This document shows positions 12,237 through 51,688 of a stretch of 64,000 bases of DNA, piece after piece; positions within the stretch are counted from its first letter, which is position 1, and the number at the start of each line of letters is the position of its first letter. Source of the DNA: a virus. The stretch lies in the UHGV virus genome UHGV-0212524; one strand, given 5' to 3'. Made by a program: the position numbers and the translations under genes. The notes beneath the pieces were generated by a model, which was given only the letters and a program-made list of their open reading frames with translations, was not told where the DNA came from and made no database searches.

Positions 12237-12283
12237 CTCAGATATATATTACCTAGGGGAGAGCGAAATTTACATTCGCTCTA
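12237..12283 (+). promoter_or_regulatory. conserved promoter-like motif plus downstream hairpin (copy 1 of 4)
   Basis: ctcagatatatattacctagg followed by the stem gagcgaa / ttcgctc. Confidence 0.5.
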
Positions 12284-12407
12284 TTAGTTATAGCCGAAAG
12301 GAGGATTAGTTCTATCACCCGTATTATCTGTTCTGGTGAATTGGGTGAAGATAAAAAATCGTGTTTGATAAATTAGTTGAAGACTACGTTAAGAAAGAGG
12401 GACAATT

Positions 12408-12851
12408 ATGAAACCAAATACTACTAACGGCATTATGTTACTTTGTGATTCTGAAACGTTAGCAAATCGTATTCGTGGTTTGATGCAAGTACGTTGGCAG
12501 CAAAAGGTTTGCGTGGACTATGCTGCACCGTTTGTTCACGTTACCTGGCTACCAGAAGCTAACGATTTTAAAGAGAGTATAACCACGAGAAGAATTAAAG
12601 ATTGGTTAATGGCAATCATTAACAAACGGATTACCGTTATCAATTTCCAGTTGTTCGGTAGTAAAGAAGAACACGATACCTTAAAACGCTGTTTAAGGGG
12701 ATTGGATCTTGCCTTTTCTGTTCGTGGAAACTGTTACACAGCGTTCTTCATCGGTTCTCTTGAGTTATTTCAGGGAACATTAAACATTCAACTAAAAGAA
12801 GATTACGGGATCGTAAATAAGATTGATTTCGAATTCCCAGCAATGATTTAA
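12408..12851 (+). CDS. hypothetical protein (147 aa)
   Basis: Intact ORF with RBS gagggacaattATG. Confidence 0.55.
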   Translation: MKPNTTNGIMLLCDSETLANRIRGLMQVRWQQKVCVDYAAPFVHVTWLPEANDFKESITTRRIKDWLMAIINKRITVINFQLFGSKEEHDTLKRCLRGLDLAFSVRGNCYTAFFIGSLELFQGTLNIQLKEDYGIVNKIDFEFPAMI

Positions 12852-12862
12852 GGAGGAGTAGC

Positions 12863-13705
12863 ATGTTTCAGTTCGAACTCACCGAAGAAGAAAAGGTTAT
12901 CAACAAGTTTAAAATTTCCCCTATCCCTACTGAGGATCAAATTAAAGAAATCACTGAGCTACAAAACACGTACACGTTTTACTATAAAGTTAAATCAGAA
13001 GCGTTTAACATTTTCTGGGTAGAAGGCGAGGTCGATTTCCCTAACAAGCTCATTAGTGCGGTTATGGATATTTTAGTACGGGCTGTTGAGACGCCTAAAG
13101 ATCCAGAAATTCCGGATCAAATGACTTGTAGGCTAAAAGACAAGCCAACTGCGAAAGACGTCGCTTACTTCACAGACGAGATTCCACTTACCCCCAAACA
13201 GGCAGGTAAAATCGGTTCGATATTATACCTTTTTTACAACGACAAATTCACTTATCTGGTTGAAAACAACGTGCTTAAAGTGAACTATGAAGGTGCTACT
13301 TATCGCGCTTTTTTAAATAACCTATTGAATGACATAGAGAAAGAAAATATTCTGCTATTTACAGTTGAGGATATTAGCGAGGCCGATGCTGCCGAGTTTA
13401 TTCGCGCAGTGAAAGATGAACACGAACACCATCTATTTATAATTTATCAAAGCAAATATCTTGAAGGTAACCTGAATCTCTTGATCCCAAACAAACCATG
13501 GGTTCTTAAAGTTCTGGAACCCCTTGCGCAGAAAATTAAGAGAGATGGTGAATATTTTAAACACGTTCTCAAGAAATACGAAAAAGAAATCAGCGAACGA
13601 CTTTCACGCCACTTTTTTGGACAGCTAGAAGCTCACGTTGGCGAATACGCCCAGCTGTTTGATAGATTTTGTAACGAGATGAGAGAAGTTCGGAATCTTA
13701 AATAA
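12863..13705 (+). CDS. hypothetical protein sharing a roughly 50-aa module with the 17664..18830 product (280 aa)
   Basis: LLFTVEDISEADAAEFIRAVKDEHEHH resembles LISFQGIGKGEADEFMRIVVHEHKEK and LLTITTIGKEDADTFMRDITRWF. Confidence 0.55.
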   Translation: MFQFELTEEEKVINKFKISPIPTEDQIKEITELQNTYTFYYKVKSEAFNIFWVEGEVDFPNKLISAVMDILVRAVETPKDPEIPDQMTCRLKDKPTAKDVAYFTDEIPLTPKQAGKIGSILYLFYNDKFTYLVENNVLKVNYEGATYRAFLNNLLNDIEKENILLFTVEDISEADAAEFIRAVKDEHEHHLFIIYQSKYLEGNLNLLIPNKPWVLKVLEPLAQKIKRDGEYFKHVLKKYEKEISERLSRHFFGQLEAHVGEYAQLFDRFCNEMREVRNLK

Positions 13706-13747
13706 CGAAGGCTTAATTACCCCACTATTTACCTAAAGGAGCATTAA

Positions 13748-14263
13748 ATGTCTGTAACAATCAACATGAATCTTTATACCAAACGTGAACGTCAAATCTT
13801 GGCTAATCAGCCAGGTGTTACTACGATTGACGGTAAACCTATCGACCCATTAAAAGTCGTTGTCGCACACAACTGTTTCGAGAAAGACTGGGACATCATG
13901 TATTTCCGTTGCCGTTCTGTCGCCAACGCACTTACCCAGCTCTCGAATTATCATCCTGGCCCAGTATTAAAAGACTGGGTTTGGTTAGTCCCTAAAACAC
14001 CTTCAGCGATTGAGTATCCGTCGGGTATGGTCTATATTCGTCCTGTCGCTTATCCAGAACGTTTAAAAGAATATCTGGAGGTTATCTGGGACCGACCTCG
14101 TAAAGAGCTGGTGACGATTATCCGTTTACTTCAAATGTGCGATATCCCCAATGTTTCGAATCTGAAACTTACGTCTCGCGATATTAACCAGGCTTACTGG
14201 GAACTAGAGTGGACAGAACCGAAATTCGAAAACACTAACCGTATTTTCTTGCACCGGGGGTAA
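13748..14263 (+). CDS. hypothetical protein (171 aa)
   Basis: Intact ORF preceded by the conserved tttacctaaaggagcattaaa leader. Confidence 0.55.
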   Translation: MSVTINMNLYTKRERQILANQPGVTTIDGKPIDPLKVVVAHNCFEKDWDIMYFRCRSVANALTQLSNYHPGPVLKDWVWLVPKTPSAIEYPSGMVYIRPVAYPERLKEYLEVIWDRPRKELVTIIRLLQMCDIPNVSNLKLTSRDINQAYWELEWTEPKFENTNRIFLHRG

Positions 14264-14265
14264 AA

Positions 14266-14547
14266 ATGTTAGATTGGTTGTTGGGTTTAATTAACTCACG
14301 TCAACAGGAGCTTTATAAAGAAAACACGCGGTTACGGCAGCAGCTTAGTAACAATCGTCAAACCAAACGACAGTTAATTCGGATGGTAAAACAACAGGCG
14401 CGCTGTATACGCGATATCGATTATCAGTATCACCGTCTGAATACCTTAGACCCAACAACAAAAGCTTTAGGCAGTACGATTGGACACGCACGGAAAGTCA
14501 GTCACGACGCGTTAGTTCGAATCGACACAATAGAAGAGAAGCTGTGA
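14266..14547 (+). CDS. hypothetical coiled-coil protein (93 aa)
   Basis: Gln/Arg-rich heptad-like sequence. Confidence 0.5.
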   Translation: MLDWLLGLINSRQQELYKENTRLRQQLSNNRQTKRQLIRMVKQQARCIRDIDYQYHRLNTLDPTTKALGSTIGHARKVSHDALVRIDTIEEKL

Positions 14548-14589
14548 TATAACCCCTCTCAGGAATTCCTGAGAGGGTGGAGTAACAAT

Positions 14590-14964
14590 ATGTCATTACT
14601 GTTATACAAATTCAGATGTTGGCTAGACACCTCGTTTAAAACCTGGGCTTGTGGTGAGAATGTCAGAACGATCGTTAAAGCAACAGACTGGTATACCGAA
14701 ATTGTGGTACTCCCTGACGGTAAACTAATTAATGTTCAGGTACGCAATATCACCGTCAGGATAGGTCGTAAAGGCGGTGCTATTTTTCTTCCCGAACTCT
14801 ATCTGGTTTCTGCATTGGAACTGAAAGCAGGACCGATGTTATTTGGTCGAACAGCGCAACACTATTTCGATACGCTTATTAAACTTAGTAATAGTGTAAA
14901 GAAATTAGGTGAGTCGGTCCATAGATTTATTAAAGAAACTGAACGAACTACGGTGGAGATTTAA
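14590..14964 (+). CDS. hypothetical protein (124 aa)
   Basis: Intact ORF; a GC-rich hairpin (14554..14577) lies upstream. Confidence 0.5.
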   Translation: MSLLLYKFRCWLDTSFKTWACGENVRTIVKATDWYTEIVVLPDGKLINVQVRNITVRIGRKGGAIFLPELYLVSALELKAGPMLFGRTAQHYFDTLIKLSNSVKKLGESVHRFIKETERTTVEI

Positions 14965-14967
14965 AAG

Positions 14968-15276
14968 ATGGAAAGTAAAATCACGAACACATCAGCACCT
15001 GAGAACATTGTCAACTATATTCTCAGTGGCGGATTGTTAGAAGACAATAAAGAAACGTGCGATAAACTCGTTTCTCAACTACTGCCGATTCGTTCAGAAT
15101 ACTGCGAAGTCGTTATCTTGGGTTCTGAGTATTGCGTACGTTCTTACTGTCGTCGTTTCGAAGCCTTACGTGTTCCACGTACGTTAGGTGGCGTGATACT
15201 CTTAGTCTCTAACTTTCACAATGCACACGTTCGTGTTGCAACCTGGATTGCTAACGGTGGTAACAATGGTTTTTAA
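14968..15276 (+). CDS. hypothetical protein (102 aa)
   Basis: Intact ORF. Confidence 0.5.
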   Translation: MESKITNTSAPENIVNYILSGGLLEDNKETCDKLVSQLLPIRSEYCEVVILGSEYCVRSYCRRFEALRVPRTLGGVILLVSNFHNAHVRVATWIANGGNNGF

Positions 15277-15574
15277 ATTGTTAGGTTTCGGAAAATGCAA
15301 AGAGTGTGCAAAGCACGAAGAATATATCAAGTTATTAGAAGAAACAGTTGAAACGCAAAAAGAACTTATCTCTGAATACCGCGCGAAAACCGGTTCAGTG
15401 GAATATCTGACCATCCTTGTTTGTGCTATTGCTGAATTGGGTTGTGAGGGAAAATTACCTAAAGAAGAGATATTAAAATTATTAAAAGAAAAAACAGAGT
15501 TCTACCGTAAAGAAATTGATGATTATAAACGTGAAGTTATAAGAGCGAATTGGGAGGTTATTAATGAAGCGTGA
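15266..15574 (+). CDS. hypothetical coiled-coil protein (about 102 aa from internal ATG)
   Basis: Track ORF begins at 15221 and would overlap the previous gene; the ATG at 15266 gives a short start/stop overlap instead. Confidence 0.45.
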   Translation: MVFKLLGFGKCKECAKHEEYIKLLEETVETQKELISEYRAKTGSVEYLTILVCAIAELGCEGKLPKEEILKLLKEKTEFYRKEIDDYKREVIRANWEVINEA

Positions 15575-15845
15575 AACGGTTGTATTTCGTAGTAATGGTG
15601 ATGTGGTTTTGTATCGTGGTAAGAAACGTATTCGTACGTTAGAATACCGAGAAGCAAAACGTTTTGTTGAAGAGTGTGCATGGTTAATGCATTACGAAGG
15701 GAACTATCGTGCTATCTTAGAAGCACCGCGTTTAGAACGTGCGGTTGCACAGATGGCGATAGGTAATCCTAAGAACTGTTACCTGGCACGTAAGCCAAAA
15801 TACCTACAGCGGCTTTCGTTAGGTAGCTTTATTGCGGGGTTTTAA
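15564..15845 (+). CDS. hypothetical protein (93 aa)
   Basis: Intact ORF with start overlap typical of coupling. Confidence 0.5.
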   Translation: MKRETVVFRSNGDVVLYRGKKRIRTLEYREAKRFVEECAWLMHYEGNYRAILEAPRLERAVAQMAIGNPKNCYLARKPKYLQRLSLGSFIAGF

Positions 15846-15856
15846 TAAAAATAATT

Positions 15857-15897
15857 TCAGATATATATTACCTAGGTGAGAGTTCAGCTACTCTCAC
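15857..15897 (+). promoter_or_regulatory. conserved promoter-like motif plus hairpin (copy 2 of 4)
   Basis: tcagatatatattacctaggtgagagttcagctactctcac; the downstream leader is nearly identical to copy 4. Confidence 0.5.
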
Positions 15898-15927
15898 TTA
15901 ACTAAAACCATTTTAGGAGCATATACC

Positions 15928-16422
15928 ATGAACTTCACTAGACTTGATTACACTAACGAATTAGTTGACAAAGAAAAATACAAATTCACCGTTGACTTGG
16001 GTTACGGATTACTGGACGTAGAAAAAGATGTTCTGCACAAAGAATTCCGTGAGCAGTTCGGTGCTTTGTTCTGCGCAGGTTTCCGCAGAAACACTATTGA
16101 TATCGGTTACAGCGCAACAGCGTATACCGATGAAGAAATGTTTAAGCTGGTAACACAGATTATCGGAACGCGTGGAGCTAATCGTCTTAATTATTCCAAC
16201 GAACTTGTTTCGAAAGAGCATTACAAGTTCACCGTTAGACTACCTGCACACCTCACAGAAGAAGATAAGAACATCCTCTACAAAGCCCTCCAAACCGAAT
16301 TCGGTAAATCGCTCAAAGTAGGGTTCCGTAGTCGTAGTATCGATATCGGAATTAGTGTGGATGTGTGTAGTGACGATGACCTTTACGAATTAGTTTCGGA
16401 AGTTATCGGAAAACATCTCTAA
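15928..16422 (+). CDS. hypothetical protein with internal tandem duplication (164 aa)
   Basis: Two roughly 80-aa halves: LDYTNELVDKEKYKFTV...FRRNTIDIGYS... and LNYSNELVSKEHYKFTV...FRSRSIDIGIS... Confidence 0.6.
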   Translation: MNFTRLDYTNELVDKEKYKFTVDLGYGLLDVEKDVLHKEFREQFGALFCAGFRRNTIDIGYSATAYTDEEMFKLVTQIIGTRGANRLNYSNELVSKEHYKFTVRLPAHLTEEDKNILYKALQTEFGKSLKVGFRSRSIDIGISVDVCSDDDLYELVSEVIGKHL

Positions 16423-16468
16423 ACCTAAATTAACACTTCGACTTGTAAATCTAAAAGGAAAAATAAAA

Positions 16469-17233
16469 ATGAAAACTATCGAATTCAAAAACAGCAACGT
16501 ACGCGAGCAAGGACACATTATCACGAGCTTCCTGAAAAATTCTACACCGCATTTAGCTTATCAATTCTACGGGAACGAACTTAAGATTGCCGGTTTTGAT
16601 GAAGTTGAATTAAATAGGGCAAACGAATTCATTACCGACGTTATTGCCGACGAAGCTACCTGTTTAGTTCTGAACTTTGTTAAACCTGGAGAAGACATAA
16701 AGTCTGCCGAGAAGTTATTTATGGCAGTTTCTGAGAAACTATACGGTATCGTTGAGGTTGATAGCAATAACTATATTGTTTATTTTAAGCATTCTCCAAA
16801 GAAAAACCTCACTAAACTCAGAGAGTTTTTTGAACACAACCCTTCATACTGCGTAGATCTTTACACCCTCGCTTACGACGGAAAAGTACATCCTAACAAC
16901 CTTATTCGTTATGACTATATTCCGCATGTACCGGGAAGATTCGAGGCTACGGAATGGTTCTTATTACACAAAGATCGGATTGCTTATTACAATTACGAAG
17001 AGATCAAAGGAATTGTAGACAAAATCAATGACGACTACTTACAAACTCGCGAAATGTTTTGCGTGACTGTAAGAGCTAACGGATTAACTTCGTTCACTTG
17101 TGACAACCGCGTCGGTCGTCGCGTCTACGATCTGCTAATAAAGGAACTCGACAAACTTACTCCGGTAAAAGTTGGTGTTAACTATTTAAATTGGATAAAG
17201 GCAGGATTAATTGATGAAAACCCTAAATTCTGA
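16469..17233 (+). CDS. hypothetical protein (254 aa)
   Basis: Intact ORF with RBS aaaggaaaaataaaaATG. Confidence 0.55.
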   Translation: MKTIEFKNSNVREQGHIITSFLKNSTPHLAYQFYGNELKIAGFDEVELNRANEFITDVIADEATCLVLNFVKPGEDIKSAEKLFMAVSEKLYGIVEVDSNNYIVYFKHSPKKNLTKLREFFEHNPSYCVDLYTLAYDGKVHPNNLIRYDYIPHVPGRFEATEWFLLHKDRIAYYNYEEIKGIVDKINDDYLQTREMFCVTVRANGLTSFTCDNRVGRRVYDLLIKELDKLTPVKVGVNYLNWIKAGLIDENPKF

Positions 17234-17642
17234 TTTGCGTGATTACATTCGTAAATACCCAGCCAGTATTCCGGTACTGGCTTCACTCTCTTTATCGGGT
17301 ATGGACCTTAATACCTTAACGGTAGAAAAATTCCACGAAGTGGTGAAGTCGTCGTATCAAATTGTTACCGATATGTCAGTGCGGAAACGTGCTGACTACC
17401 CAGACGGCGATTTCGGTACAGAGATGTTCACAGACTACGCAGTTGCGTATCTGATGGGACGTCACTTTATCGATAAACTCAATACGGCTGTAGAAGGAGA
17501 AACAGTCACGGAAATTGTTAATGCTTGGCAGCAACGTATTGTGAGTGACGCTTACTGTCGTCAAGCCTTAAAGAAAATGTCGGCGGTAGCATTAACCAAT
17601 GACCAACGTGCTTTAGAGTTCCTTAAGCACAACTACGAATAA
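17211..17642 (+). CDS. hypothetical protein, paralog of the 18900..19331 product (143 aa)
   Basis: Same length and shared pattern (D.R.YIR..P, EYP.G..G) with the later gene. Confidence 0.55.
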   Translation: MMKTLNSDLRDYIRKYPASIPVLASLSLSGMDLNTLTVEKFHEVVKSSYQIVTDMSVRKRADYPDGDFGTEMFTDYAVAYLMGRHFIDKLNTAVEGETVTEIVNAWQQRIVSDAYCRQALKKMSAVALTNDQRALEFLKHNYE

Positions 17643-17663
17643 TTTACCAAAAGGAAAAGTACC

Positions 17664-18830
17664 ATGTTTAATATTGAGATTACACCGCTCGTTAAAACTG
17701 AAATCCGTCCGGTTCCTGAAGCACAGTTACTCGATCAACTTTATCGTATATTCCTGGATAAAGGTGTGCATTTCCGTGTAGAACAAGTCAACGATGAAAG
17801 CATCGTGTTCTACTGGACTCACAGCAACGATTACCTTTGCGACACTATCGCGGTGGAAATCGGTGAGTTGCTCAACCCGGTAGAAACAACCGAGACAGAG
17901 CAACCGAAAGTCGAAGAGCAGCAGAAAGACGAACCGCACGTCCTCTGGTACGAAGGCGAAAAGATTAAGGATATTAAAGAGGCGTTAGAGACCTTCTATC
18001 CCGATGATTTAGGCATTTACTGGGATAACAGCAAACTCGTCGTTCGATTGAAGAATGACGATCGTAACCTCATGGAAGAAGTACGTTCTGTCGCTGAGCT
18101 GATCGATAACGACACCGTTCGACTTATTTCGTTTCAAGGTATCGGAAAAGGTGAAGCGGACGAATTCATGCGTATAGTTGTTCACGAACACAAGGAGAAA
18201 ATTCGCCAGTCTAATTATGCTGGCGATACTCTAACTGTGCTTGTTGATAATGACCCTGTTGTTATTAATCAACTGAACATCTGTATGCGTAAGTTAACAA
18301 AGAAAATTTTTCTTAACCAACTCGAAGAAGGGGAGCAACCGCGTGAAGAGTCCGATGTGTTGAAAGCCTTTACATACACTGGTCCAGATGCCGAAGCGAT
18401 TAATGACACTTTGACAGCATTCTATTCTACCAAGGTAGAGACCAAACTCGAGGGCGAAAAACTCACCTTTAAATGGAAATGGTGGAACATTGCTTTTGAA
18501 GAAGAAATTCATAGTCTCATTAATGAGATTGTTGACAACCGTCTACGTCTTCTAACAATCACTACTATTGGGAAAGAAGATGCCGATACGTTTATGCGTG
18601 ATATCACTCGTTGGTTTCCTGAGAAAGTCCGTCAGTGGACTTACAAAAACGATACACTTACCATTCTACTCAACTATGAACCCGGTATTATTGGAAAGTT
18701 AAAAACTCATCTGCGTGACTTGTGGTCAGTTCGTTTTCTTAATAATAACGAGCACTTACTCGACGCGTACTTTAGAGAAATATCTTCTGGCGTAGGTTGC
18801 AACTGCCCTAACTGTCAGAAGCATCGCTAA
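17664..18830 (+). CDS. hypothetical protein with internal repeats and C-terminal Cys cluster (388 aa)
   Basis: Repeated module (see 12863..13705); C-terminal GCNCPNCQKHR suggests a small zinc-binding knuckle. Confidence 0.55.
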   Translation: MFNIEITPLVKTEIRPVPEAQLLDQLYRIFLDKGVHFRVEQVNDESIVFYWTHSNDYLCDTIAVEIGELLNPVETTETEQPKVEEQQKDEPHVLWYEGEKIKDIKEALETFYPDDLGIYWDNSKLVVRLKNDDRNLMEEVRSVAELIDNDTVRLISFQGIGKGEADEFMRIVVHEHKEKIRQSNYAGDTLTVLVDNDPVVINQLNICMRKLTKKIFLNQLEEGEQPREESDVLKAFTYTGPDAEAINDTLTAFYSTKVETKLEGEKLTFKWKWWNIAFEEEIHSLINEIVDNRLRLLTITTIGKEDADTFMRDITRWFPEKVRQWTYKNDTLTILLNYEPGIIGKLKTHLRDLWSVRFLNNNEHLLDAYFREISSGVGCNCPNCQKHR

Positions 18831-18847
18831 TTAACTAAAATCGTCCA

Positions 18848-18875
18848 AGGGGTGGTAAACCACCCCTCTATTATT
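18848..18875 (+). terminator. putative terminator hairpin
   Basis: aggggtgg taaa ccacccct followed by ctattattgtattt. Confidence 0.4.
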
Positions 18876-18899
18876 GTATTTACCTAAAGGAGCATTAAA

Positions 18900-19331
18900 A
18901 TGTTTTTCGTATTAAAAGATGATATCCGTAACTACATTCGCAACAACCCGATTGCCCTGGGCGTTTTAGCAGGTTTCTGTCGTCCAAATACTGATTTCGA
19001 TTTAGTTAAGTTAGAAGAATATCAGGAAATTGTGAATACTAACTACATGCACATCTGTAGCTGGGGTAAACGTCCTCGTGAAGAGTATCCCGCAGGTGAA
19101 TTAGGCGACTCTATGCATCGTGACCAGAATCTGATGCACGAATTCGTTGAATACACACTGGAAAATCTTAACTATCCGCTTTTAGTCGACACTGTACCAG
19201 AAATGGTTGACGAGTGGTTAAGTCGTGTTTACAACGACCCTACTGCCAGCACTCTACTGAGTCAGATGTCGCAAACTTCTCGTGATATCGACACCCGGAC
19301 CCTGATGTACCTAGCACACAACGTTCGCTAA
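18900..19331 (+). CDS. hypothetical protein, paralog of the 17211..17642 product (143 aa)
   Basis: Paralogy as above; preceded by the conserved tacctaaaggagcattaaaATG leader. Confidence 0.55.
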   Translation: MFFVLKDDIRNYIRNNPIALGVLAGFCRPNTDFDLVKLEEYQEIVNTNYMHICSWGKRPREEYPAGELGDSMHRDQNLMHEFVEYTLENLNYPLLVDTVPEMVDEWLSRVYNDPTASTLLSQMSQTSRDIDTRTLMYLAHNVR

Positions 19332-19338
19332 CCTCTCT

Positions 19339-19392
19339 CCGCTATAGGCTTCGGTCTATAGCGGAATTAATTTTCTTTCCCTTTTCTTTTTT
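19339..19392 (+). terminator. rho-independent terminator
   Basis: ccgctatag gcttcggt ctatagcgg followed by a T-rich tract. Confidence 0.6.
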
Positions 19393-19497
19393 GTTATTTT
19401 GACGCTACTTTACTTACACCCTACCCGACTATTCCTATGCTGGCTGAGGGATGTAAAACGACCTCTTAAACCTTTTTACTTACTGTGAGTTAACGCG

Positions 19498-28132: not shown

Positions 28133-28152
28133 TGCAGGTTGCTCCAGTATTT

Positions 28153-29040: not shown

Positions 29041-29161
29041 TGATTACTCCAATTATTTCACGGGTAGTATCTTTAGCGTCTAGCTCAGACCCAACATAAA
29101 CAGCAGCTTTGTTATCAAGGATGGTTTCGAAGGGCTTGGTATGGAACCACCACCAGAAGAC

Positions 29162-29371
29162 TTACCTGCCTCCCCCTGCACCTTTACTACAGCTACCACT
29201 GCACGCCCAGCTACAACTCCCATTACAGTTATAGTGAGTTAACGGTAATCCTGCCAAGTTATTCGTTGAGGACACCGTACCCTGATTAGCAATATAGTTA
29301 TTCGCATCTGTGGTTTTAATGTAGCCTTCAACCTGACCGATTCTGTCTCGAATATTTTTGAGGGAAATCAC
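29162..29371 (-). CDS. Cys-rich leader-core peptide, short paralog (69 aa)
   Basis: Leader MISLKNIRDRIGQVE... then HYNCNGSCSWACSGSCSKGAGGGR; paralogous to the two longer peptides. Confidence 0.6.
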   Translation of the reverse strand: MISLKNIRDRIGQVEGYIKTTDANNYIANQGTVSSTNNLAGLPLTHYNCNGSCSWACSGSCSKGAGGGR

Positions 29372-36671: not shown

Positions 36672-36765
36672 CGTAAAGACTCCTACTTTTAAATAAAATG
36701 GATACCCCTCCCCATTACAGGGAGGGGTTACCTACGGACACACAACTGCCCGCAGGCAGCCTGTC

Positions 36766-40950: not shown

Positions 40951-40960
40951 AAAATTCTCC

Positions 40961-45283: not shown

Positions 45284-45350
45284 TATCTACTCCTATAGTC
45301 CGTGGGCGTCGAGTTCATACTATGACTTGAATCTATTGAGGAAAAGAGCT

Positions 45351-46613
45351 GTGACTACTGCTTATCAAGTGCGGCCTGACAGCGCTTTTGGCTTCTCTCG
45401 AGAGACCCGTACCTGGGGAGCCATCGACGTCACGCAACCCTTAGAAACCTTGTGTTCTGATTACCATATTTTCGAAGTCGGTCTGAGTGCGCTTGGTAAA
45501 GACTATACGTTAATTAGCCAATATCACCTCGCTGACTTACAAAACCGTACCGATACGTTACAAGACTGGCTGAATGAAAAAGCCGGTGTGGTTATCTCTG
45601 CGTTGAAAGACGGTTTACCGACGTTAGAGTTTGATTGGGCACACTACCAATCGATTAATGCCGATGTTCCAGTAGAAACCTACCTGTGTCCTCCCGGTTA
45701 CCATTACAGTCAAGATTTCAGTATAGACGATGCTGACGACGTTGTGATTGTTTGCGAAGATAAATGGAAAGACAAATACCGTAACGGGGTGTTGTACAAC
45801 ATCAACGGTCAATGGGTACCACATCAGTCGGATACAGTTGGTGTACGTTTACCGGGCGCGGGTAAGATAGTACGTCGTGCAGGGACACCGGATATCGGCT
45901 GCATGGTCTTTAGTAAATTGGGGAATGTTAAAACGTACCCCATTGCTAACTTGACCCTAAACAAACTCGACACCACCCGTGACTATTATTCCACGTTAAT
46001 GATTTCTTTACCGGAATCTATTACGGGTAAAACCGTGGGGTTTGTTATCGGGGGTCTGATACACTGGTTACCGGTTACTGGGTACTTCTCCGACAAAGCC
46101 ATTATGGTCTCGTTACCGAACTTTGACGTTGCGCGTACTGTGTTAGAAACCCGACGTTATTACGACTGGGATAGCATCGGTGTTGGCGATCTGTCATCCC
46201 CGACCAGCGTACAGCGTATCCGCAACCCAGAAACATTAAAGGCGCTTTTAACCCACGAGTCGTCGTTTATCTTTACGGTGGATAATCCGTATCTGGAAGA
46301 AGAAGTTGTGGGGGTTTCTCACAACGCTATCTGGGGACGTTTATACCTTAAAGATCCTAATGACCCTGATGGGGAAAAACAGCTGGGCTATCTGTTAAAC
46401 CGCTTCGGTAAAACCGTTGCTTATTGGCCGACGTGGGAAGAAGGGGAATGGGTATTTAACACCACGGAATTCGACAGTCAAAACTACGTGTTCCGTGAGG
46501 CCCGTTGGTATAACCAGAAGAAAATTAACGATGCACAGGCAATCGTAGGACCTTTCGGTCCCTGGGAAAAAGTCTATTTGGAAATGCATCGTTTCCGTGC
46601 AAGAAAAAAATAA
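45351..46613 (+). CDS. hypothetical protein (about 420 aa; start uncertain)
   Basis: Track ORF begins at 45135 but that would overlap the divergent fibre gene start; the in-frame GTG at 45351 has the RBS gaggaaaag upstream. Confidence 0.45.
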   Translation: MTTAYQVRPDSAFGFSRETRTWGAIDVTQPLETLCSDYHIFEVGLSALGKDYTLISQYHLADLQNRTDTLQDWLNEKAGVVISALKDGLPTLEFDWAHYQSINADVPVETYLCPPGYHYSQDFSIDDADDVVIVCEDKWKDKYRNGVLYNINGQWVPHQSDTVGVRLPGAGKIVRRAGTPDIGCMVFSKLGNVKTYPIANLTLNKLDTTRDYYSTLMISLPESITGKTVGFVIGGLIHWLPVTGYFSDKAIMVSLPNFDVARTVLETRRYYDWDSIGVGDLSSPTSVQRIRNPETLKALLTHESSFIFTVDNPYLEEEVVGVSHNAIWGRLYLKDPNDPDGEKQLGYLLNRFGKTVAYWPTWEEGEWVFNTTEFDSQNYVFREARWYNQKKINDAQAIVGPFGPWEKVYLEMHRFRARKK

Positions 46614-46870: not shown

Positions 46871-47069
46871 AGCTACTCTCCAGTTAAAGAAAGGAAGGAC
46901 TGTATCGTGTTACAACCAAAGCATAAGATAGCTCCTCCCCGAAGGGAGGAGTGAGTGCGCGAAAAAAGTGGCCTGCTTAACTAAACGATGAGGTTTAAGA
47001 AAAGTGTTGATAAGAAGCTTACCAACGTCAGGTCACAATATATAATACCAGCGTAAGAAAAAGGGGAAA

Positions 47070-48035
47070 TCAGCGTGGGCCTGAAGTTGGGCCATGGACG
47101 CCGTCGTGGATGTGTACGCTGAAGGTAATACCGGAAATCACCGCATCCTTAACCGTAAAGATACCCACGCCTTCGCCCGTACCACCGTATTTGAAGTTCT
47201 TAGCAACTTCCAAATTACCGGTGAACATCGCTTCGTTACCTTCTTGCTTAAAGTTCGGCGTTTTATACGTTGTTGAACCAGAAGCTTCAGTTAGCCAGGT
47301 TTCTGTTTTAAAGGTAACCGATTTCGACGCTTCGGTATTCCGAACTTCGCATTTCTCATTAATCGTTTTCGTTTCCAGGTTAATCGAACGTTTTGCGTAA
47401 ATGAACGCATCTTCTTTGTTGATGTTCACTTTCGAGAGCATCGCGTTCTCAAAACCTAAATCGTCTTCCACCGAGTTAATGTAATACTTATTCCCTTTAT
47501 GGTCAACGCACTGCCACGACCCGTTAGCGTTATCGAATTGGAATAACCACGCCGCTTTCTCCCCATTCACCATACTTGTTCTTAGGGTAACGTGTTTGTC
47601 AATCGTTGAGACGTTTAACACATACGCGTTCGACAAGTCATCCGCCATCTGGTTTTCCGGGTCAGCCGACCACGCGTAAACCGCATCCTCTAATCGCTTA
47701 ACGTTAGCGAAATTCAAATCAATCCAAAAATAAATATCAGTTTGCCCTAGACGTAGCAAGATAACGTAATCTTCTCGCTTAACGTCTGGGGAATTAATTC
47801 GGTTGGAATTAAATTTCCACCACTTTGCAGTAATCGTGTTACCGGTTTTAATCGTTAGGTTGTCGATAGCACCCCCAGTATCGTGTACCTTTTCAGCGGT
47901 TGAGGAAACTGATTGTACAACGGTAGGGTTCGCAAAGTTGGTTTCAATTGGTATCACTTTTACCCGATCTGTACCACGGGGTTTGTCTTCCGCGACGATA
48001 CCAATCGAGAAAAAGTCAACGCTGGATTTCTCCAT
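47070..48035 (-). CDS. hypothetical protein, possibly virion structural (321 aa)
   Basis: Intact ORF; beta-rich composition; C-terminal GITFSVHIHDGVHGPTSGP; no confident family assignment. Confidence 0.5.
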   Translation of the reverse strand: MEKSSVDFFSIGIVAEDKPRGTDRVKVIPIETNFANPTVVQSVSSTAEKVHDTGGAIDNLTIKTGNTITAKWWKFNSNRINSPDVKREDYVILLRLGQTDIYFWIDLNFANVKRLEDAVYAWSADPENQMADDLSNAYVLNVSTIDKHVTLRTSMVNGEKAAWLFQFDNANGSWQCVDHKGNKYYINSVEDDLGFENAMLSKVNINKEDAFIYAKRSINLETKTINEKCEVRNTEASKSVTFKTETWLTEASGSTTYKTPNFKQEGNEAMFTGNLEVAKNFKYGGTGEGVGIFTVKDAVISGITFSVHIHDGVHGPTSGPR

Positions 48036-48063
48036 TAGGTCGTTCCTTAGATCGGAAATGAAT

Positions 48064-48115
48064 TCAGATATATTTTACTTAAGTGAATAGGGGCTGAACT
48101 CGCACTTCAGCCCCT
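48064..48115 (+). promoter_or_regulatory. conserved promoter-like motif plus hairpin (copy 3 of 4)
   Basis: tcagatatattttacttaagtga followed by the stem aggggctgaa / ttcagcccct. Confidence 0.45.
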
Positions 48116-48421
48116 ATGGGCACGTTTCTTTCGAAACGGAGTTACCATGTGATTAGGAGACAGACCAATGTCTACTGAGAAGAAAAGCGGATTGGACGAA
48201 GTCATCGTACTGTTCAAACGCTACAACCCGGCTATTCCTCGGTAATCATAGTATTACTTAAAATTTACAGATTGTCCCTTTATTCTGCTACTCGGGATAC
48301 CGGTAGGGGGTAGGGGGCAATATGTATACGGATATAAATAGCGGAGGTATACGTAGTATACCGACATACTCTTCCCAGAGGAACGTAGTGACTCCCTTAT
48401 TCCATTTTAGGAGAATATATC

Positions 48422-48979
48422 ATGATTACTATCGAAATGAAACAACAAGCTATTGAGTTTGTTAAGCTGGGTGCAGGTAAACACCAACTTGATTATCCTT
48501 GCGTTATACAGTCTAACGTTATCCGGCCAGGTACAATGATTACCGGTCTTCAAGTTGAAGAATTTGATGGAGATGCTGTGGTTTGGGAACGCCGTTTCTC
48601 ACGACTTAATTATCATAGTGTCGGAGATAGTTTTACCGAAATATTCCGTCATCTGTTTTCCGGTACCGGATGGAAAGTAACGAGTGCGTTCTACGGTGGC
48701 AATGTTATTACCCTTCTAGACAGAGGAGATGCACGTTATCTCGTGAACTTTACTTTCGCAAGACGCTACGCATATTTCCCTAACCCACTTACGTGTACGT
48801 TAAGTAACCCAGGAATACTACTAACAGATAAAGAAGCAGAGGCACTACTTACAGAACTGAAAAAGGACGGTTGTGATATTGATGACTGGGAAACATTGGT
48901 AGGGACAGCAAAAGCACACGGTTGGCATACAGTGCGCAAACTCGGTCAGCAACTGTTGTTCTTAGCTTATAACGTTTAA
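48422..48979 (+). CDS. hypothetical protein, paralog family C (185 aa)
   Basis: C-terminal ...AKAHGWHTVRKLGQQLLFLAYNV shared with the next two genes. Confidence 0.6.
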   Translation: MITIEMKQQAIEFVKLGAGKHQLDYPCVIQSNVIRPGTMITGLQVEEFDGDAVVWERRFSRLNYHSVGDSFTEIFRHLFSGTGWKVTSAFYGGNVITLLDRGDARYLVNFTFARRYAYFPNPLTCTLSNPGILLTDKEAEALLTELKKDGCDIDDWETLVGTAKAHGWHTVRKLGQQLLFLAYNV

Positions 48980-49008
48980 GTAACGAACAACCCTAAAGGA
49001 GAGTAAAA

Positions 49009-50160
49009 ATGCGAAATATTATTTCTAAACCAGGACATGTCAAGATCCTAAAAGAACTGATGGACAGATGCTATAATCAGACTTGGCCTCTGCCAAGCTT
49101 AACCATCGAGTCTTCATTACAACGCGAGTTGTTTGGTTATAACTTGGGCTGCTGTGTACTGAGTGAATACGATGAGATTATCGCGCCTGTCGATGTCTGT
49201 ACTTACGATGAAGAAATTGAAGGTTACCAGTTCGAGGTTTACACAAATTCTGGACTAAATTACCGTAAACTCGTTGTTAGAGAAAAGAGTAGCGGCCGGA
49301 AGATTATGTTTAAGGTCTTCCCAAGCGGTAAAGTCAGTAGTTTATGTTTTCAGCTTGAGCAAGTGTCCTTTCACGGTGCAGCTATTTTAACTAAACCAGA
49401 ACTCGCGTTATTAAGTGGGTTAATTGGTTTTGAAGCAAAAACCATCAAAGTTGAGCAGGAACTCACACGAAACGATTTCGGCTCGACCTGGTACGAAAGT
49501 TTCTTCCGCTACGAAATGTTAAGTGATAAAGCTATCAAGCTCACTTACCGTTCTACCGACGATCTCGTTTACCACATTTTAATTAGCGGCGAACCCCACC
49601 TGATTATTGAAGACAAAGGAGAAAATCAAATGTCTGCCTTAAGAGACGAATTAGCCCAATTCATTCGTGACGTCGAAGAGAAAAGCAAGAGCGAACACAT
49701 TTTCTCACAACGCTATCCTGAACTTATTGACGAGACCACCGATAGTGTCGTCGACGGTATACGCATTTTCCCAAGTGGTCTTGCAATCTACCGACTGCCC
49801 AGCGTTAACCAGCTTAAAGTCATGGAAATGCTAAAAGACGTTTTAGCAGAAGCGGGTTGGGAATATCGTTTCGATTGCAATTTCGAAGGGATGGCGTTAT
49901 TCGTTACAAAGAAAAATTATACGTTGTCAATCGATCTGCCCAAAAGTCAATATTACAGTTTCTTCCCGAAAGCGGATGACCGCACTGAAAAAGAACCTGC
50001 GTTGTTACTCGATGCGGCAGAATCCAATACGCTAATGATGCGTCTGCGGATGGTTGACAAAAAGTTAAATACCGGCCATTTAACGACGATCGGTAAAGAT
50101 TACGGTTGGAAATCTGTCGAACCGTACGGCAGTCAGCTGCTGTTTGTTGCTGACCTTTAA
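49009..50160 (+). CDS. hypothetical protein, paralog family C (383 aa)
   Basis: C-terminal ...GKDYGWKSVEPYGSQLLFVADL. Confidence 0.6.
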   Translation: MRNIISKPGHVKILKELMDRCYNQTWPLPSLTIESSLQRELFGYNLGCCVLSEYDEIIAPVDVCTYDEEIEGYQFEVYTNSGLNYRKLVVREKSSGRKIMFKVFPSGKVSSLCFQLEQVSFHGAAILTKPELALLSGLIGFEAKTIKVEQELTRNDFGSTWYESFFRYEMLSDKAIKLTYRSTDDLVYHILISGEPHLIIEDKGENQMSALRDELAQFIRDVEEKSKSEHIFSQRYPELIDETTDSVVDGIRIFPSGLAIYRLPSVNQLKVMEMLKDVLAEAGWEYRFDCNFEGMALFVTKKNYTLSIDLPKSQYYSFFPKADDRTEKEPALLLDAAESNTLMMRLRMVDKKLNTGHLTTIGKDYGWKSVEPYGSQLLFVADL

Positions 50161-50186
50161 TAAGTGAAAATACACTTTCTCTAACT

Positions 50187-50212
50187 GCCGCGCTTTAGTC
50201 GCGGCTTTTGTT
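50187..50212 (+). terminator. rho-independent terminator
   Basis: gccgcg ctttagt cgcggc followed by ttttgtt. Confidence 0.6.
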
Positions 50213-50227
50213 AAGAAGGAAATAGAA

Positions 50228-51001
50228 ATGAAAGTCCATTTAGACGATATCTTTAAAACCGAACCGTATATGATCGAAGGCCCGCTAACGTCGCTACTAT
50301 TTGCCGATAGACTAGATCGAACGTTGCAATTACAATCGGTCGAATCTGCACCGATTAACGATGTAGAGCGCTACGAGCGCATCAACCATACGCGGGGTGA
50401 GTATCGTCGCTATAAGCCAAACTCACTAACCATCAAGCTTTGGAAAGTGAGCACAGGTAAAGTATTAACTTATCGCGCTGTTGGTAGTTATTACATTCAA
50501 CAGGCCAAAGAGTGGTTAGAAAAAGTTAAAGAACTGAACTTCGATCTACTGAGCAAAAAACTGCGCGATCATAACGCCAGTTTGCCGATACGTAATTATT
50601 TCTCCACGATTGAAAATAGTCGTTGCTTCGTTTCCAGCAAGTCTATGATATCGCCTGGGGCTGATGTTCAAACAACACTGAAAGATGTGATTGTGAAGAA
50701 AATCTTTCATGAATCTGAACACGTTGGATTTCGTATCTATTTAACGCACAAGAGGCCATTTACCGTGATTCATGTTGTTACCGCACCCGAAGGCTCGGCA
50801 GTCGTACGTGAACTTCCTGACGCACGTGACCGTAGCCCTAATGAGCCACTTTACTTAATGTCAGGAACAAAATCAGAATCTTTGATGTCCCGTTACAGCA
50901 TGGTTGATGTTGTTGATACTGCTATGAAGTTAGGTTGGAAAGAAGTACAGCAGCACGGCAAACAATTGCTGTTTATCGCAGATGTAAATCTCAATAACTA
51001 A
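50228..51001 (+). CDS. hypothetical protein, paralog family C (257 aa)
   Basis: C-terminal ...AMKLGWKEVQQHGKQLLFIADVNLNN. Confidence 0.6.
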   Translation: MKVHLDDIFKTEPYMIEGPLTSLLFADRLDRTLQLQSVESAPINDVERYERINHTRGEYRRYKPNSLTIKLWKVSTGKVLTYRAVGSYYIQQAKEWLEKVKELNFDLLSKKLRDHNASLPIRNYFSTIENSRCFVSSKSMISPGADVQTTLKDVIVKKIFHESEHVGFRIYLTHKRPFTVIHVVTAPEGSAVVRELPDARDRSPNEPLYLMSGTKSESLMSRYSMVDVVDTAMKLGWKEVQQHGKQLLFIADVNLNN

Positions 51002-51013
51002 AGAGGTGGTACC

Positions 51014-51592
51014 GTGTACCGATTAATAGAAATGAGAAAAGACGTTTGGTTGGAAAACCTCGTCGATGGGGAGCTTGAGGGAATAGAGCTTTCCTTACCA
51101 GAGAGAGCGGACACGGTATTGGCCTTTCTGGTAAAACAGGCAGACCGTGAGCCGGTAGGAATTTTCACTGTGGACTATAAAGATCCGCGAGGAATTCATT
51201 TACGGAACATTTGCAGTGGTTTGGAAAACTTACCGGCTAATCCGTTCTTAAACTACGCAAAACGTAAACTCCAACCGGGACAACACCTCTGGGTAACGTT
51301 ATCGCCTGACGTTAGGATCATACGTGACGATTACTCGGCGTTTGTACAGGCAACGAAAGTCAGTCTGTATAACCCGAACGCAGAGCGTACCGATATGCCG
51401 TTTATAATTACCTTAGAAGACGATGGAACGCAAGAAGGTATCGAGGCAATTACGGAATTAGTAAACTCTTATCCGGTTGCCACTATCGAGATAGAAAACC
51501 CAAGCCGTTTACAATTGGGTGACCTGCTCGAATGGATCGAACTGAATACAGAATTCTTAATCAATTCTCGTCAGTATCGATTCGACGTTTAA
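51014..51592 (+). CDS. hypothetical protein (192 aa)
   Basis: Intact ORF with RBS aagaggtggtaccGTG/ATG. Confidence 0.55.
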   Translation: MYRLIEMRKDVWLENLVDGELEGIELSLPERADTVLAFLVKQADREPVGIFTVDYKDPRGIHLRNICSGLENLPANPFLNYAKRKLQPGQHLWVTLSPDVRIIRDDYSAFVQATKVSLYNPNAERTDMPFIITLEDDGTQEGIEAITELVNSYPVATIEIENPSRLQLGDLLEWIELNTEFLINSRQYRFDV

Positions 51593-51596
51593 CAAC

Positions 51597-51626
51597 GGTG
51601 GGGTGTAAACCCCACCTTTTTTTTGT
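51597..51626 (+). terminator. rho-independent terminator
   Basis: ggtggggtg taaa ccccacc followed by a T9 run. Confidence 0.75.
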
Positions 51627-51647
51627 TCTCTAACATTAAAAATAATC

Positions 51648-51688
51648 TCAGATATATATTACTTAGGTGAGAGTACAAAAGCTCTCAC
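51648..51688 (+). promoter_or_regulatory. conserved promoter-like motif plus hairpin (copy 4 of 4)
   Basis: tcagatatatattacttaggtgagagtacaaaagctctcac; the downstream leader cttaactaaaaccattttaggag is shared with copy 2. Confidence 0.5.

Follow-up and report, generated by a model that had tools for sequence, protein, structure and literature searches.

Both the 5' UTR of E. coli ompA and the T7 phi10 leader, which is found in pET vectors, carry a 5'-terminal stem-loop that acts as a stabilizer. In coliphage N4, a DNA hairpin with a 3-nt loop lies upstream of the transcription start and is read by a single-subunit polymerase. Among jumbo phages, a review describes an AT-rich motif centred near -10 before the early operons of every member that encodes an RNA polymerase (RNAP) (PMC7598289). 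The mapped early-promoter consensus of AR9 is AAATATATATTAT-N6-G+1, and in phiKZ and phiR1-37 transcription starts 6 nt downstream of the consensus (PMC5312081). The early promoters of phiKZ and AR9 are both attributed to a virion multisubunit RNA polymerase (vRNAP).

The 64-kb stretch of DNA analyzed here (the window) comes from an uncultured jumbo phage, a phiKZ-related relative of Salmonella phage SPN3US. Gene order in the window is similar to that of SPN3US at roughly 104-178 kb, and a virion protein encoded in it is at most 52% identical to its homologues in Asesino and SPN3US. SPN3US has seven RNAP beta-like genes. We found no RNAP gene within the 64-kb window; a homologue of the 1401-aa RNAP subunit of SPN3US (77% identity) is encoded on a contig whose identity to the window is 93-96%. 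The phage shares with the phiKZ-related vRNAP phages a lineage with split multisubunit RNAPs. Phages of the phiKZ-related group, to which SPN3US belongs, encode two multisubunit RNA polymerases.

The window contains exactly four copies of the motif (c/t)TCAGATATAT(A/T)TTAC(C/T)TA(A/G)G(T/G)GA, starting at 12238, 15857, 48064 and 51648, all of them on the + strand, intergenic and pointing in the same direction as the genes downstream. A pattern search allowing up to 3 mismatches returned the same four copies only; dinucleotide shuffles are expected to yield 0.01 copies, and none of 100 shuffles reached four. No further site emerged when both strands of the window were scanned with the core TATATWTTAC, with a 40-nt weight matrix or with an unfiltered sequence-plus-structure model, which scored the four sites at E 2e-12 to 9e-6 and its next best match at 3.8. 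The four + strand places at which the initial annotation had seen the motif are thus confirmed by the pattern search and three further scans. None of the four copies overlaps an ORF of at least 100 aa, in a window that is at least 90% coding, and a matrix scan of the complete SPN3US genome gave 12 matches, all on the + strand, intergenic and upstream of + strand genes. The motif is the sole nucleotide-level match of the window to 44 SPN3US-like or Erwinia phages, over 36-55 nt at 89-100% identity. The gene blocks behind the promoters have a G+C content of 39-42%, versus 46-49% in structural blocks.

Each copy lies within a unit of similar layout. At site 1, an intrinsic terminator on the + strand (12192..12236; 13-bp stem and T-rich tail, with the stem-loop called at 12192-12220 by a terminator scan) ends the tail-fibre gene block. 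Directly 3' of it lies candidate early promoter 1 (12237..12258, +), in which core TATATATTAC spans 12243-12252 and a 6-nt spacer spans 12253-12258 (matrix score 51.3; E 2.8e-8). By the N6-G rule of AR9 and phiKZ its predicted start is G 12259, and hairpin 1 (12260..12282, +) begins at predicted +2, with AGAGCGAA and TTCGCTCT forming 8 bp around the loop ATTTACA (-10.6 kcal/mol). Site 2 comes after a stop codon and sits in the first copy of a cassette that comprises promoter, hairpin, leader and start codon (15846..15932, +; direct repeat family D2). Candidate promoter 2 (15856..15877, +; core TATATATTAC at 15862-15871, spacer 15872-15877; score 62.4; E 2.9e-11) has its predicted start at G 15878, and its stretch is the region's sole megablast match to the 44 phages. 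Hairpin 2 (15876..15897, +) consists of GTGAGAGT, the loop TCAGCT and ACTCTCAC (8 bp); the portion from predicted +1 is GAGAGU/ACUCUC (15878-15895), and the leader continues to a Shine-Dalgarno sequence, AGGAG (15915-15919), and an ATG at 15928.

Candidate promoter 3 (48063..48084, +; core TATATTTTAC at 48069-48078; score 44.8; E 8.7e-6; predicted start G 48085) lies in a divergent region between a - strand structural block, whose gene ends at 48035, and a + strand block. Its hairpin (48087..48117, +), which begins at predicted +3 and is followed by no T run, pairs ATAGGGGCTGAA with TTCAGCCCCTAT over 12 bp around CTCGCAC (about -20 kcal/mol). A second small hairpin in this leader (48123..48138, +; CGTTTC, loop TTTC, GAAACG) precedes a small ORF of 25 aa (48168-48245). 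Ahead of promoter 4, an intrinsic terminator (51597..51624, +; 8-bp G+C-rich stem and T8, stem-loop 51597-51616) ends an operon, and the second cassette copy (51637..51723, +) repeats 15846-15932; the leader that the initial annotation had seen to be common to copies 2 and 4 is part of this 87-nt cassette, whose copies are 87% identical. Candidate promoter 4 (51647..51668, +; core TATATATTAC at 51653-51662, spacer 51663-51668; score 61.2; E 2.2e-12) has its predicted start at G 51669, hairpin 4 (51667..51688, +) consists of GTGAGAGT, the loop ACAAAA and GCTCTCAC (8 bp) with a T·G wobble at the position of a T-A pair in copy 2, and the leader continues to an ATG at 51719. All four stem-loops reported earlier were therefore located, at 8-12 bp, and so was their placement after a terminator (sites 1 and 4) or gene end (site 2), with site 3 in divergent intergenic DNA. 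Folding z-scores for the stretches containing hairpins 1-4 are -1.6, -3.3, -5.0 and -3.9.

The four repeats very probably serve a virion RNA polymerase of the SPN3US/phiKZ type as early promoters. They share the core and spacing TATATTAC-N6-G with phiKZ, in which this arrangement occurs seven times on the + strand of the first 50 kb and never on the - strand, and they resemble the mapped ATATATTAT-N6-G+1 of AR9. Like the vRNAP promoters of phiKZ, 201phi2-1, phiR1-37 and AR9, they have an A/T-rich upstream region and a conserved G 6 nt downstream, and like those of phiKZ-related phages they are co-oriented, intergenic and placed before operons of small hypothetical genes. They differ in a longer conserved block, TCAGATATATATTACYTARGTGAGA, and in number, with four copies in the 64 kb of the window and 12 in SPN3US versus the 32-41 per genome reported for phiKZ and AR9. 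We infer by analogy both the start sites, to within about 3 nt, and the 'early' label. The promoter is of an already known kind. The hairpin that follows it is not mentioned in the jumbo-phage RNAP and promoter literature that we examined, and a conserved 5' hairpin at such promoters appears to be undescribed.

Applying the start-site rule of phiKZ and AR9 places the hairpins at the extreme 5' end of the RNA, with those of the window predicted to start at -2 to +3 of the transcript. In a set of 66 non-identical promoter copies taken from related phages, an unbroken stem of 7 bp or more begins between -2 and +4 in 44, compared with a mean of 4.4 and a maximum of 10 in 200 shuffles. Starts at +1 and +3 are the most frequent, and the copies carry 29 distinct 5' arms. 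The initial annotation had argued from the differing stems that structure is under selection, an argument that is weak for the four paralogues alone and becomes strong once related phages are added. Orthologues of hairpin 3 show three independent compensatory pair changes and those of hairpin 1 show one (C-G to T-A, giving GAGTGAA/TTCACTC), with no core pair broken at either site and loops that vary freely. In a gapless alignment of paralogues, 92% of cells are paired versus 78% after shuffling (0/500) and 40-55% with the partner slid, and the covariation score is 0.353 versus 0.118; common ancestry of the copies inflates both statistics. With Watson-Crick pairs alone, 14 stems reach 8 bp or more; allowing G·T as well raises the count to 28, and allowing A·C instead raises it to 18. 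Inside the stems of the family hairpins, G·T pairs outnumber A·C pairs 12 to 3, and 12 of 13 aligned copies open with a G·U pair. This greater tolerance of G·T than of A·C points to the sense strand or RNA as the structured molecule.

Loops range from 3 to 12 nt, and neither their sequences and lengths nor the inner stem sequences are conserved. The leader from the predicted start to a Shine-Dalgarno-preceded start codon has a median length of 52 nt (IQR 50-60). Roughly a quarter to a third of promoters in the family lack a convincing hairpin, as do most of the weaker SPN3US variants, a pattern which suggests that the hairpin is modulatory and not obligatory. In AR9 we found a hairpin at 2 of 17 annotated promoters and no consistent one, and inspection by eye of seven phiKZ sites showed no consistent hairpin either. 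From sequence comparison, the hairpin appears to be a clade-specific feature.

We consider it likely that each unit combines an early promoter for the virion polymerase with a 5'-terminal RNA stem-loop that probably stabilizes the mRNA. This supports the earlier proposal of a phage-specific promoter with a stabilizing or regulatory 5' hairpin, on the strength of a core and spacing like those of other jumbo-phage early promoters and of compensatory pairing. As in ompA and T7 phi10, the predicted stem-loop leaves at most two unpaired 5' nucleotides, a leader lies between it and the ribosome-binding site, and the initial transcribed 5' arm is purine-rich as in T7 phi10 (GGGAGA... in T7, GAGAG or GAGAU here). 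Unlike those leaders, the ones described here would be made by a multisubunit virion polymerase instead of host RNAP or a T7-type enzyme, and they occur at many promoters across one phage clade with differing stems and a putative effect on half-life.

The covariation and G·U tolerance reveal selection on an RNA or sense-strand structure and are compatible with several purposes; the hairpin could be an RNA signal for a job other than protection from decay. It might be bound by a protein of the phage or the host, mark early mRNAs for sorting or for export from the early infection vesicle, help to recruit ribosomes, or act as a nascent-RNA structure that lets a sigma-less virion polymerase leave the promoter and avoid R-loops. 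A GAGA start that is conserved and a position that is fixed would fit a recognition element, and a need for stability in general does not obviously predict the apparent clade specificity. The unconserved loops and inner stems, however, argue against a protein that recognizes specific sequence beyond the GAGA/UCUY base; the absence of the hairpin at about 25-30% of promoters also speaks against such a signal, and no candidate binding protein was found. We regard this explanation as unlikely, though worth keeping in view.

Quite improbable is a promoter-proximal attenuator or conditional terminator that yields short 5' RNAs or gates read-through into the operon. Premature termination in 5' UTRs and abundant short RNAs are known from phiKZ and 201phi2-1 (PMC10914365; PMC11512511), phiKZ terminators are hairpins followed only by TTAT (PMC10914365), and TTTA or TTA follows many family hairpins. 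Yet the real terminators of the window have G+C-rich stems and at least eight T, and its 5' hairpins lack such T runs, being followed by GGGCACG at site 3 and by TTAACTAAAA at sites 2 and 4. Some of the apparent U tract is itself paired in the stem, and a halt 20-30 nt into each early operon would run counter to what an early promoter is for.

Very improbable, in our judgement, is a hairpin that works in DNA as part of the promoter, with transcription starting downstream of it. N4 sets the precedent of a virion polymerase reading hairpin promoters, and it resembles the present case in its injected polymerase, early promoters and short hairpin. The inverted repeats of copies 2 and 4 reach 2 nt upstream of predicted +1, which would suit this idea and may equally reflect either a start slightly further upstream or two fortuitous pairs. 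Against it, mapped relatives start 6 nt after the same core, upstream of the hairpin, and a template-strand DNA hairpin would give the opposite of the sense-strand bias for G·T over A·C. The hairpin here also differs from that of N4 in lying downstream of a -10-like core, in its variable stem and loop, in its tolerance of G·U and in being missing at a quarter or more of promoters, and this clade has multisubunit polymerases rather than N4-like ones.

T4-type phages have promoter-early stem-loops (PeSLs), which resemble the present units as repeated promoter and stem-loop elements that lie among small orphan genes, often right after a terminator, and that coincide with indel or replacement breakpoints between close relatives (PMC2839356). 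The PeSL promoter matches the sigma-70 consensus and its stem-loop is an upstream terminator (PMC2839356), whereas our units have a phage-polymerase-type promoter and a defining stem-loop at the predicted 5' end of the transcript. That the repeats are mainly recombination or mobility sequences of PeSL or miniature mobile element type, with a secondary promoter or RNA role, is scarcely credible: the cassette shared by copies 2 and 4, the absence of window 51675-52116 (hairpin, leader and a 123-aa gene) from close relatives with flanks 93-96% identical, its left breakpoint at +5 of promoter 4, the indels in the site-1 leader and the terminator-like T run just upstream of 43/66 copies, as in PeSLs, are outweighed by strict strand, position and spacing relative to genes, a 22-nt core near-perfectly conserved between phages whose other DNA cannot be aligned, and hairpin covariation, which together argue for selection for expression rather than for recombination. 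The shuffling of cassettes is more readily understood as a side effect of having repeated promoters.

Stabilization is the most economical reading among several RNA-level functions compatible with the data, and protection from 5'-end-dependent decay is the most likely job of the stem-loop. In this model, a polymerase packaged in the virion and injected along with the DNA would recognize the four motifs as early promoters, using the AT-rich core TATAT(A/T)TTAC as a -10-like element below an A/T-rich stretch. By analogy, the G of GAGA(G/T), about 6 nt past the core, would be the first transcribed base, and the first 18-33 nt of the transcript would form a stem-loop that leaves 0-2 nucleotides unpaired at the 5' end. 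The conserved purine-rich initial transcribed sequence would fix most of the 5' arm while the 3' arm evolves and stays complementary. phiKZ has an inhibitor of the RNA degradosome, Dip (PMC4980113); tblastn detected no Dip homologue in SPN3US or the window, a weak negative because these phages are far diverged. Each unit, often consisting of terminator, promoter, hairpin, leader of about 50 nt, Shine-Dalgarno sequence and gene, stands at the head of a block of small genes that are low in G+C and have no known function, and the units also act as cassettes that can be exchanged among related genomes. The stem-loop would shield the 5' end of the first phage mRNAs from decay by RppH and RNase E, a protection that would matter most before any phage counter-measure exists.

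Four copies of a promoter-like motif, TATAT(A/T)TTAC followed by CTAGGT or TTAAGT and then G, lie in the window at 12238, 15857, 48064 and 51648 (sites or promoters 1 to 4), all on the plus strand and ahead of plus-strand genes. A search of the whole window with TCAGATATATWTTACYTARGTGA, allowing up to 3 mismatches, matched at these positions only, compared with a mean of 0.01 matches in dinucleotide shuffles, and an exact search for the 10-nt core TATATWTTAC gave four copies and no more. Where this core recurs in the window with one mismatch, the flanks are unrelated and there is no hairpin. With a 40-nt weight matrix derived from related phages, the four sites reached 45-62 bits and no other position in the window reached 10 bits, while an unfiltered covariance model gave E-values of 2e-12 to 9e-6 at the four sites, with the next match at E = 3.8. 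None of the mismatch scans, the matrix or the covariance model uncovered a further weaker or hidden copy in the window.

The placement of the copies is what would be expected of promoters. None of the four overlaps an ORF of at least 100 aa, even though ORFs of that size cover at least 90% of the window, and the minus-strand virion block at 24.7-48.0 kb has no copy at all. The initial annotation, working from the sequence alone, had placed each copy after a terminator or gene end, with a stem-loop following it, and both descriptions hold: intrinsic terminators with long T runs stand just before sites 1 and 4, site 2 comes directly after a stop codon, and site 3 lies in a divergent region with the minus-strand virion-gene block on one side and a plus-strand block on the other, while a stem-loop is present at 4/4 sites. 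The likeness that it saw between copies 2 and 4 extends to a common 87-nt cassette of 87% identity that runs from an A/T-rich upstream region to the start codon.

The window belongs to a lineage of RNA polymerase-encoding jumbo phages. Its PHROG matches include tail and tail-fibre proteins, three very large paralogous virion proteins, radical-SAM proteins and an SbcC-like protein. A 1394-aa virion protein is up to 52% identical to proteins of Erwinia phage Asesino, Salmonella phage SPN3US, Proteus phage 7, phiEaH2 and related phages of ~240 kb, and the gene order resembles that of SPN3US at roughly 104-178 kb. SPN3US is counted among the phiKZ-related phages (PMC7598289), and we found seven RNA-polymerase beta-like genes in it. 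Identity to the window is 82-97% in several uncultured contigs of 107-225 kb; one contig, 93-96% identical, encodes a 77%-identical homologue of the 1401-aa SPN3US RNAP subunit. No RNAP gene lies inside the window, and a virion-packaged multisubunit RNAP thus appears to be a feature of the lineage that the window's own genome may share.

Scanning viral contigs for the 17-mer CAGATATATWTTACYTA gave 106 stretches. After removal of duplicates, 66 copies had flanks of the family type, mostly in contigs of 150-246 kb, and we refer to these as family copies. Roughly 33 other copies of the 17-mer failed the family-flank filter; most are unrelated chance matches, including a repeat in giant-virus MAGs, and they serve as a rough control only, being imperfect negatives among which a few look like other jumbo-phage promoters with hairpins of their own. 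In seven giant-virus MAG contigs (L006, L010, L026, L032, L045, L056 and L062), CAGATATATTTTACTTATATTTGAATAT recurs with cataactatatt before it and G+C-rich repeats after it. This element apparently has the phage-promoter 17-mer by chance, and it may be a repeat or promoter of those giant viruses.

Several observations point to the polymerase that uses the motif. Megablast of window 11500-17500 against 50,697 phage records matched in the motif and nowhere else, over 36-55 nt at 89-100% identity, in 44 SPN3US-like, Erwinia, Escherichia and Proteus jumbo phages; window 47000-53000 likewise matched in the motif only, with a single 42-nt match. Because the motif is nearly unchanged while all of the surrounding DNA has diverged beyond alignment, it must be under strong selection. 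Each RNAP-encoding jumbo phage has a characteristic AT-rich motif of ~10 nt near -10 of its early operons, which has been assigned to the virion polymerase (PMC7598289). The early promoters of AR9 take the form AAATATATATTAT-(6N)-G+1, and transcription in phiKZ and phiR1-37 starts 6 nt 3' of their consensus (PMC5312081). In the first 50 kb of phiKZ we found TATATTAC seven times on the plus strand and never on the minus strand, each copy lying between genes and having six bases and then a G after it; a related core (ATATATTAT, compared with TATATTAC) is present in 17 annotated AR9 promoters. At all four sites in the window, the AT-rich, -10-like core of ~10 nt is TATAT(A/T)TTAC. A G follows 6 nt past the core at 4/4 window sites and in 66/66 family copies, although the latter were chosen for that G. 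By this core-to-G rule, the predicted plus-strand starts are 12259, 15878, 48085 and 51669 for sites 1 to 4.

The same matrix scan of the complete SPN3US genome gave 12 matches, all of them (12/12) intergenic, on the plus strand and upstream of plus-strand genes, one of them standing before a gene that is followed by an RNAP subunit gene. Among the predicted start Gs in SPN3US are 4446, 56313, 65432, 94258, 114005, 165706 and 223296. The genes that follow the window promoters are small and without known function. The blocks that these promoters head (12001-20000 and 48001-54000) have a G+C content of 39-43%, compared with 46-50% in the structural blocks (2001-12000 and 26001-46000), and the structural-gene blocks of the window contain 0 copies of the motif. 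Given the core and its spacing, the selection on the motif, the SPN3US matches, and the small-gene, G+C-poor blocks, we read the four motifs, by homology, as virion-RNAP early promoters with the predicted starts listed. That they are early promoters of a phage polymerase is very probable. Our literature searches found no transcript mapping for the SPN3US-like clade, and a text search for the motif returned no relevant match. A host-type (sigma-70) promoter is rejected: a scan for such promoters produced a lone marginal match (9/12, at site 2) without enrichment, and the conserved block is not arranged as -35 and -10 elements would be.

SPN3US also carries a second, weaker variant, (c/g)agatAGatattaT-N6-G, at 15633, 72505, 72703, 92559 and 109912. 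The genes downstream of this variant include the one that stands before an RNAP subunit gene. A clear +1 hairpin accompanies 1/5 of these (92559), and the variant may represent a distinct class of strength or timing. In seven other contigs (L028, L057, L059, L085, L086, L029 and L092), the core of the family occurs with another spacer or start (for example ...TTACTTAagcGATAAAACTAG... and ...CCTAgtgAAGTTAAG...) and a hairpin just downstream, and the arrangement of promoter and hairpin may therefore extend to further jumbo-phage lineages.

The hairpins begin almost exactly where the transcripts are predicted to begin. Relative to the predicted +1, the stem starts at +2 at site 1, +1 at site 2 (-2 in DNA), +3 at site 3 and +1 at site 4 (-2 in DNA), and given the inferred start sites, the stems have the 5'-end proximity (0-3 nt) of a stabiliser. 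In the RNAfold structures of most family copies, too, the hairpin's 5' arm lies at +1 or +2 relative to the predicted start. Stems of 7 bp or more that run without interruption from a position between -2 and +4 are found in 44/66 copies, compared with a mean of 4.4 and a maximum of 10 in shuffles, and stem starts across the family form sharp peaks at +1 and +3. The leader from the predicted start to a Shine-Dalgarno-preceded start codon is also tight in family promoters, with a median of 52 nt.

That the stems differ while their pairing is kept, as the initial annotation had claimed, is borne out once related phages are compared. The family has 29 distinct 5'-arm sequences. At site 3, orthologues have three times independently exchanged both partners of a pair with pairing intact (G-C to A-U twice, and C-G to U-A) and have 0 broken core pairs, while the loop varies freely; orthologues of site 1 show a compensatory change of C-G to U-A. 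When 13 paralogous promoters are aligned without gaps, 92% of cells are paired. Shuffling the partners lowers this to 78% (0/500 shuffles are as high as the real alignment), and displacing the partner by 1-3 columns lowers it to 40-55%; the covariation score for these paralogues is 0.353 against 0.118. The kinds of pairs tolerated indicate the molecule involved. With Watson-Crick pairing alone, 14 stems reach 8 bp or more; admitting G·T raises the count to 28, and admitting A·C raises it to 18. Internal pairs include 12 G·T as against 3 A·C, and the first pair is G·U in 12/13 of the aligned promoter copies. This excess of G·T over A·C is as expected from selection on the transcript; structure in the template strand or in cruciform DNA would not yield such asymmetry. 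Selection acts on structure rather than sequence, and at the level of RNA. That the hairpin also acts as RNA is likely.

The stem-loop is not a fixture of these promoters everywhere. A clear hairpin is missing from a quarter to a third of family promoters, as it is from the majority of the weaker variants in SPN3US. In AR9, 2/17 annotated promoters have a stem of 6 bp or more at -2 to +4, and inspection of the seven phiKZ sites by eye revealed no consistent hairpin. The AR9 and phiKZ sites rule out a hairpin general to all vRNAP promoters. The stem-loop therefore looks like an addition specific to the SPN3US-like clade. Rfam at gathering thresholds identified no known RNA family in the window, literature searches found nothing on hairpins at jumbo-phage early promoters, and we found no mention of a conserved +1 stem-loop in the jumbo-phage transcriptome and review papers examined.

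In E. coli mRNA decay, a helix at the 5' end keeps RppH from removing pyrophosphate and RNase E from sensing that end, as in the classic 5' stabilisers of the ompA and T7 phi10 leaders. A similar mechanism can be proposed here. The injected polymerase would start at the G 6 nt after the core, the purine-rich start GAGA(G/U) would form the 5' arm, and the downstream sequence would evolve to pair with it. The 5' end of the resulting RNA, buried in a helix with 0-2 free nucleotides, would be shielded from both RppH and RNase E. Such protection in cis would be most useful to the very first transcripts, before any phage protein exists. Jumbo phages do face pressure from the degradosome, as phiKZ makes an inhibitor of it, Dip (PMC4980113); tblastn with phiKZ Dip against SPN3US and the compared loci found no homologue, which is a weak negative. 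The overall reading of the initial annotation, a phage-specific promoter with a stabilising or regulatory 5' hairpin, is supported, and by analogy with known leaders we tentatively put forward stabilisation as the hairpin's main role, at somewhat short of an even chance. Promoter escape, protein binding, effects on export or translation, and attenuation share the remaining probability. We think it improbable that the +1 stem-loop, whose GAGA/UCUY base is invariant, goes beyond a generic stabiliser and gives virion-polymerase transcripts a functional tag specific to the clade. As such a tag, it might be needed by the sigma-less injected polymerase for release of the nascent RNA and promoter escape, or it might be recognised for export of the first mRNAs from the early infection compartment or for their preferential translation. 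If true, this would add a new cis-acting layer to jumbo-phage take-over that is missing from phiKZ and AR9.

Two other readings of the hairpins do not survive. In phage N4, a single-subunit vRNAP recognises promoters with a DNA hairpin upstream of the start, which has a short stem and a conserved 3-nt loop; the present clade has multisubunit polymerases, and its hairpins lie downstream of the -10-like core, with unconserved loops of 3-12 nt and a sense-strand G·T bias. Nor are the hairpins terminators, as they lack the T runs that mark the real ones 40-70 nt upstream.

Comparison with close relatives suggests that genes come and go at these promoters. Window 51675-52116, which comprises hairpin 4, its leader and a 123-aa gene (51719-52090), is absent from four close relatives, L061 (at 8940-9000), L012, L068 and L039, whose flanks are 93-96% identical to the window. 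Identity breaks at +5 of promoter 4 and resumes ~20 nt before the next start codon, and in these four the next gene is joined to the same promoter by a different hairpin and leader. A diverged copy of this cassette (76% over 210 nt) is found elsewhere in another relative, L095. At window 12289-12330, the leader of promoter 1 has a strong Shine-Dalgarno sequence, aaaggaggattag, that is followed by TTC in the window and in L078 but by ATG in L054, L080 and L107, and L054 has ~735 nt extra (3635-4369) here. From these two differences, the window seems to have lost the first gene of the promoter 1 operon while keeping a 149-nt leader. A terminator-like T run stands just upstream of 43/66 family promoters. 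The adjacent terminator and the gene-cassette breakpoints, as in the indel bounded by promoter 4, are reminiscent of the PeSL cassettes of T4-type phages; PeSLs, unlike the window promoters, have sigma-70 promoters and a stem-loop that is the upstream terminator (PMC2839356), and the likeness is therefore one of behaviour, not of membership.

Other features of the leaders and their surroundings were also observed. The leader of promoter 3 is long; within 48118-48245 it has a second small hairpin (48123-48138) and a 25-aa ORF (48168-48245) that has a good Shine-Dalgarno, and these elements precede a 185-aa gene at 48422. Two families of near-identical ribosome-binding contexts stand before different genes of the window, TATTTACCTAAAGGAGCATTAAA and CCATTTTAGGAGnATAnnnnATGA (13726-13748, 18877-18899 and 54396-54418; 15908-15931, 48402-48425 and 51699-51722), which suggests shared or exchanged translation-initiation regions. 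Leaders 2 and 4 contain TTAACTAAA, which we take to be loosely like the T7 gene 10 'epsilon' enhancer TTAACTTTA. Upstream of promoter 1, a 105-nt direct repeat (11318-11422 and 11457-11561; 87% identical, 139-nt spacing) opens with a run of ~12 G and duplicates the upstream region and first codons of a GTG-start ORF (11521-12033). It looks like a recent tandem duplication, since the close relatives L084 and L080 appear to be single-copy; the G homopolymer in this region (11316-11561) could be an assembly weak point.

Jumbo-phage infection begins with early transcription by an injected polymerase. The promoters used in this step are mapped in just a few phages, and the SPN3US/Erwinia clade, whose members are in development for Salmonella and fire-blight control, is not represented among them. 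Our analysis provides a precise and testable promoter model for this clade, with core, predicted +1 and leader, and extends it to an uncultured lineage. The promoter class was already known, with the window as a new lineage within it; the stem-loop conserved at +1 appears to be the new element. The model offers a simple handle for annotating early operons and a candidate portable promoter-plus-stabiliser part for engineering these phages. The promoter-bounded gene indels suggest how orphan early genes get swapped between genomes, and the structurally conserved 5' stem-loop that accompanies most promoters of the clade raises the question of how the early mRNAs escape degradation by host RNases while the phage has yet to mount counter-measures.
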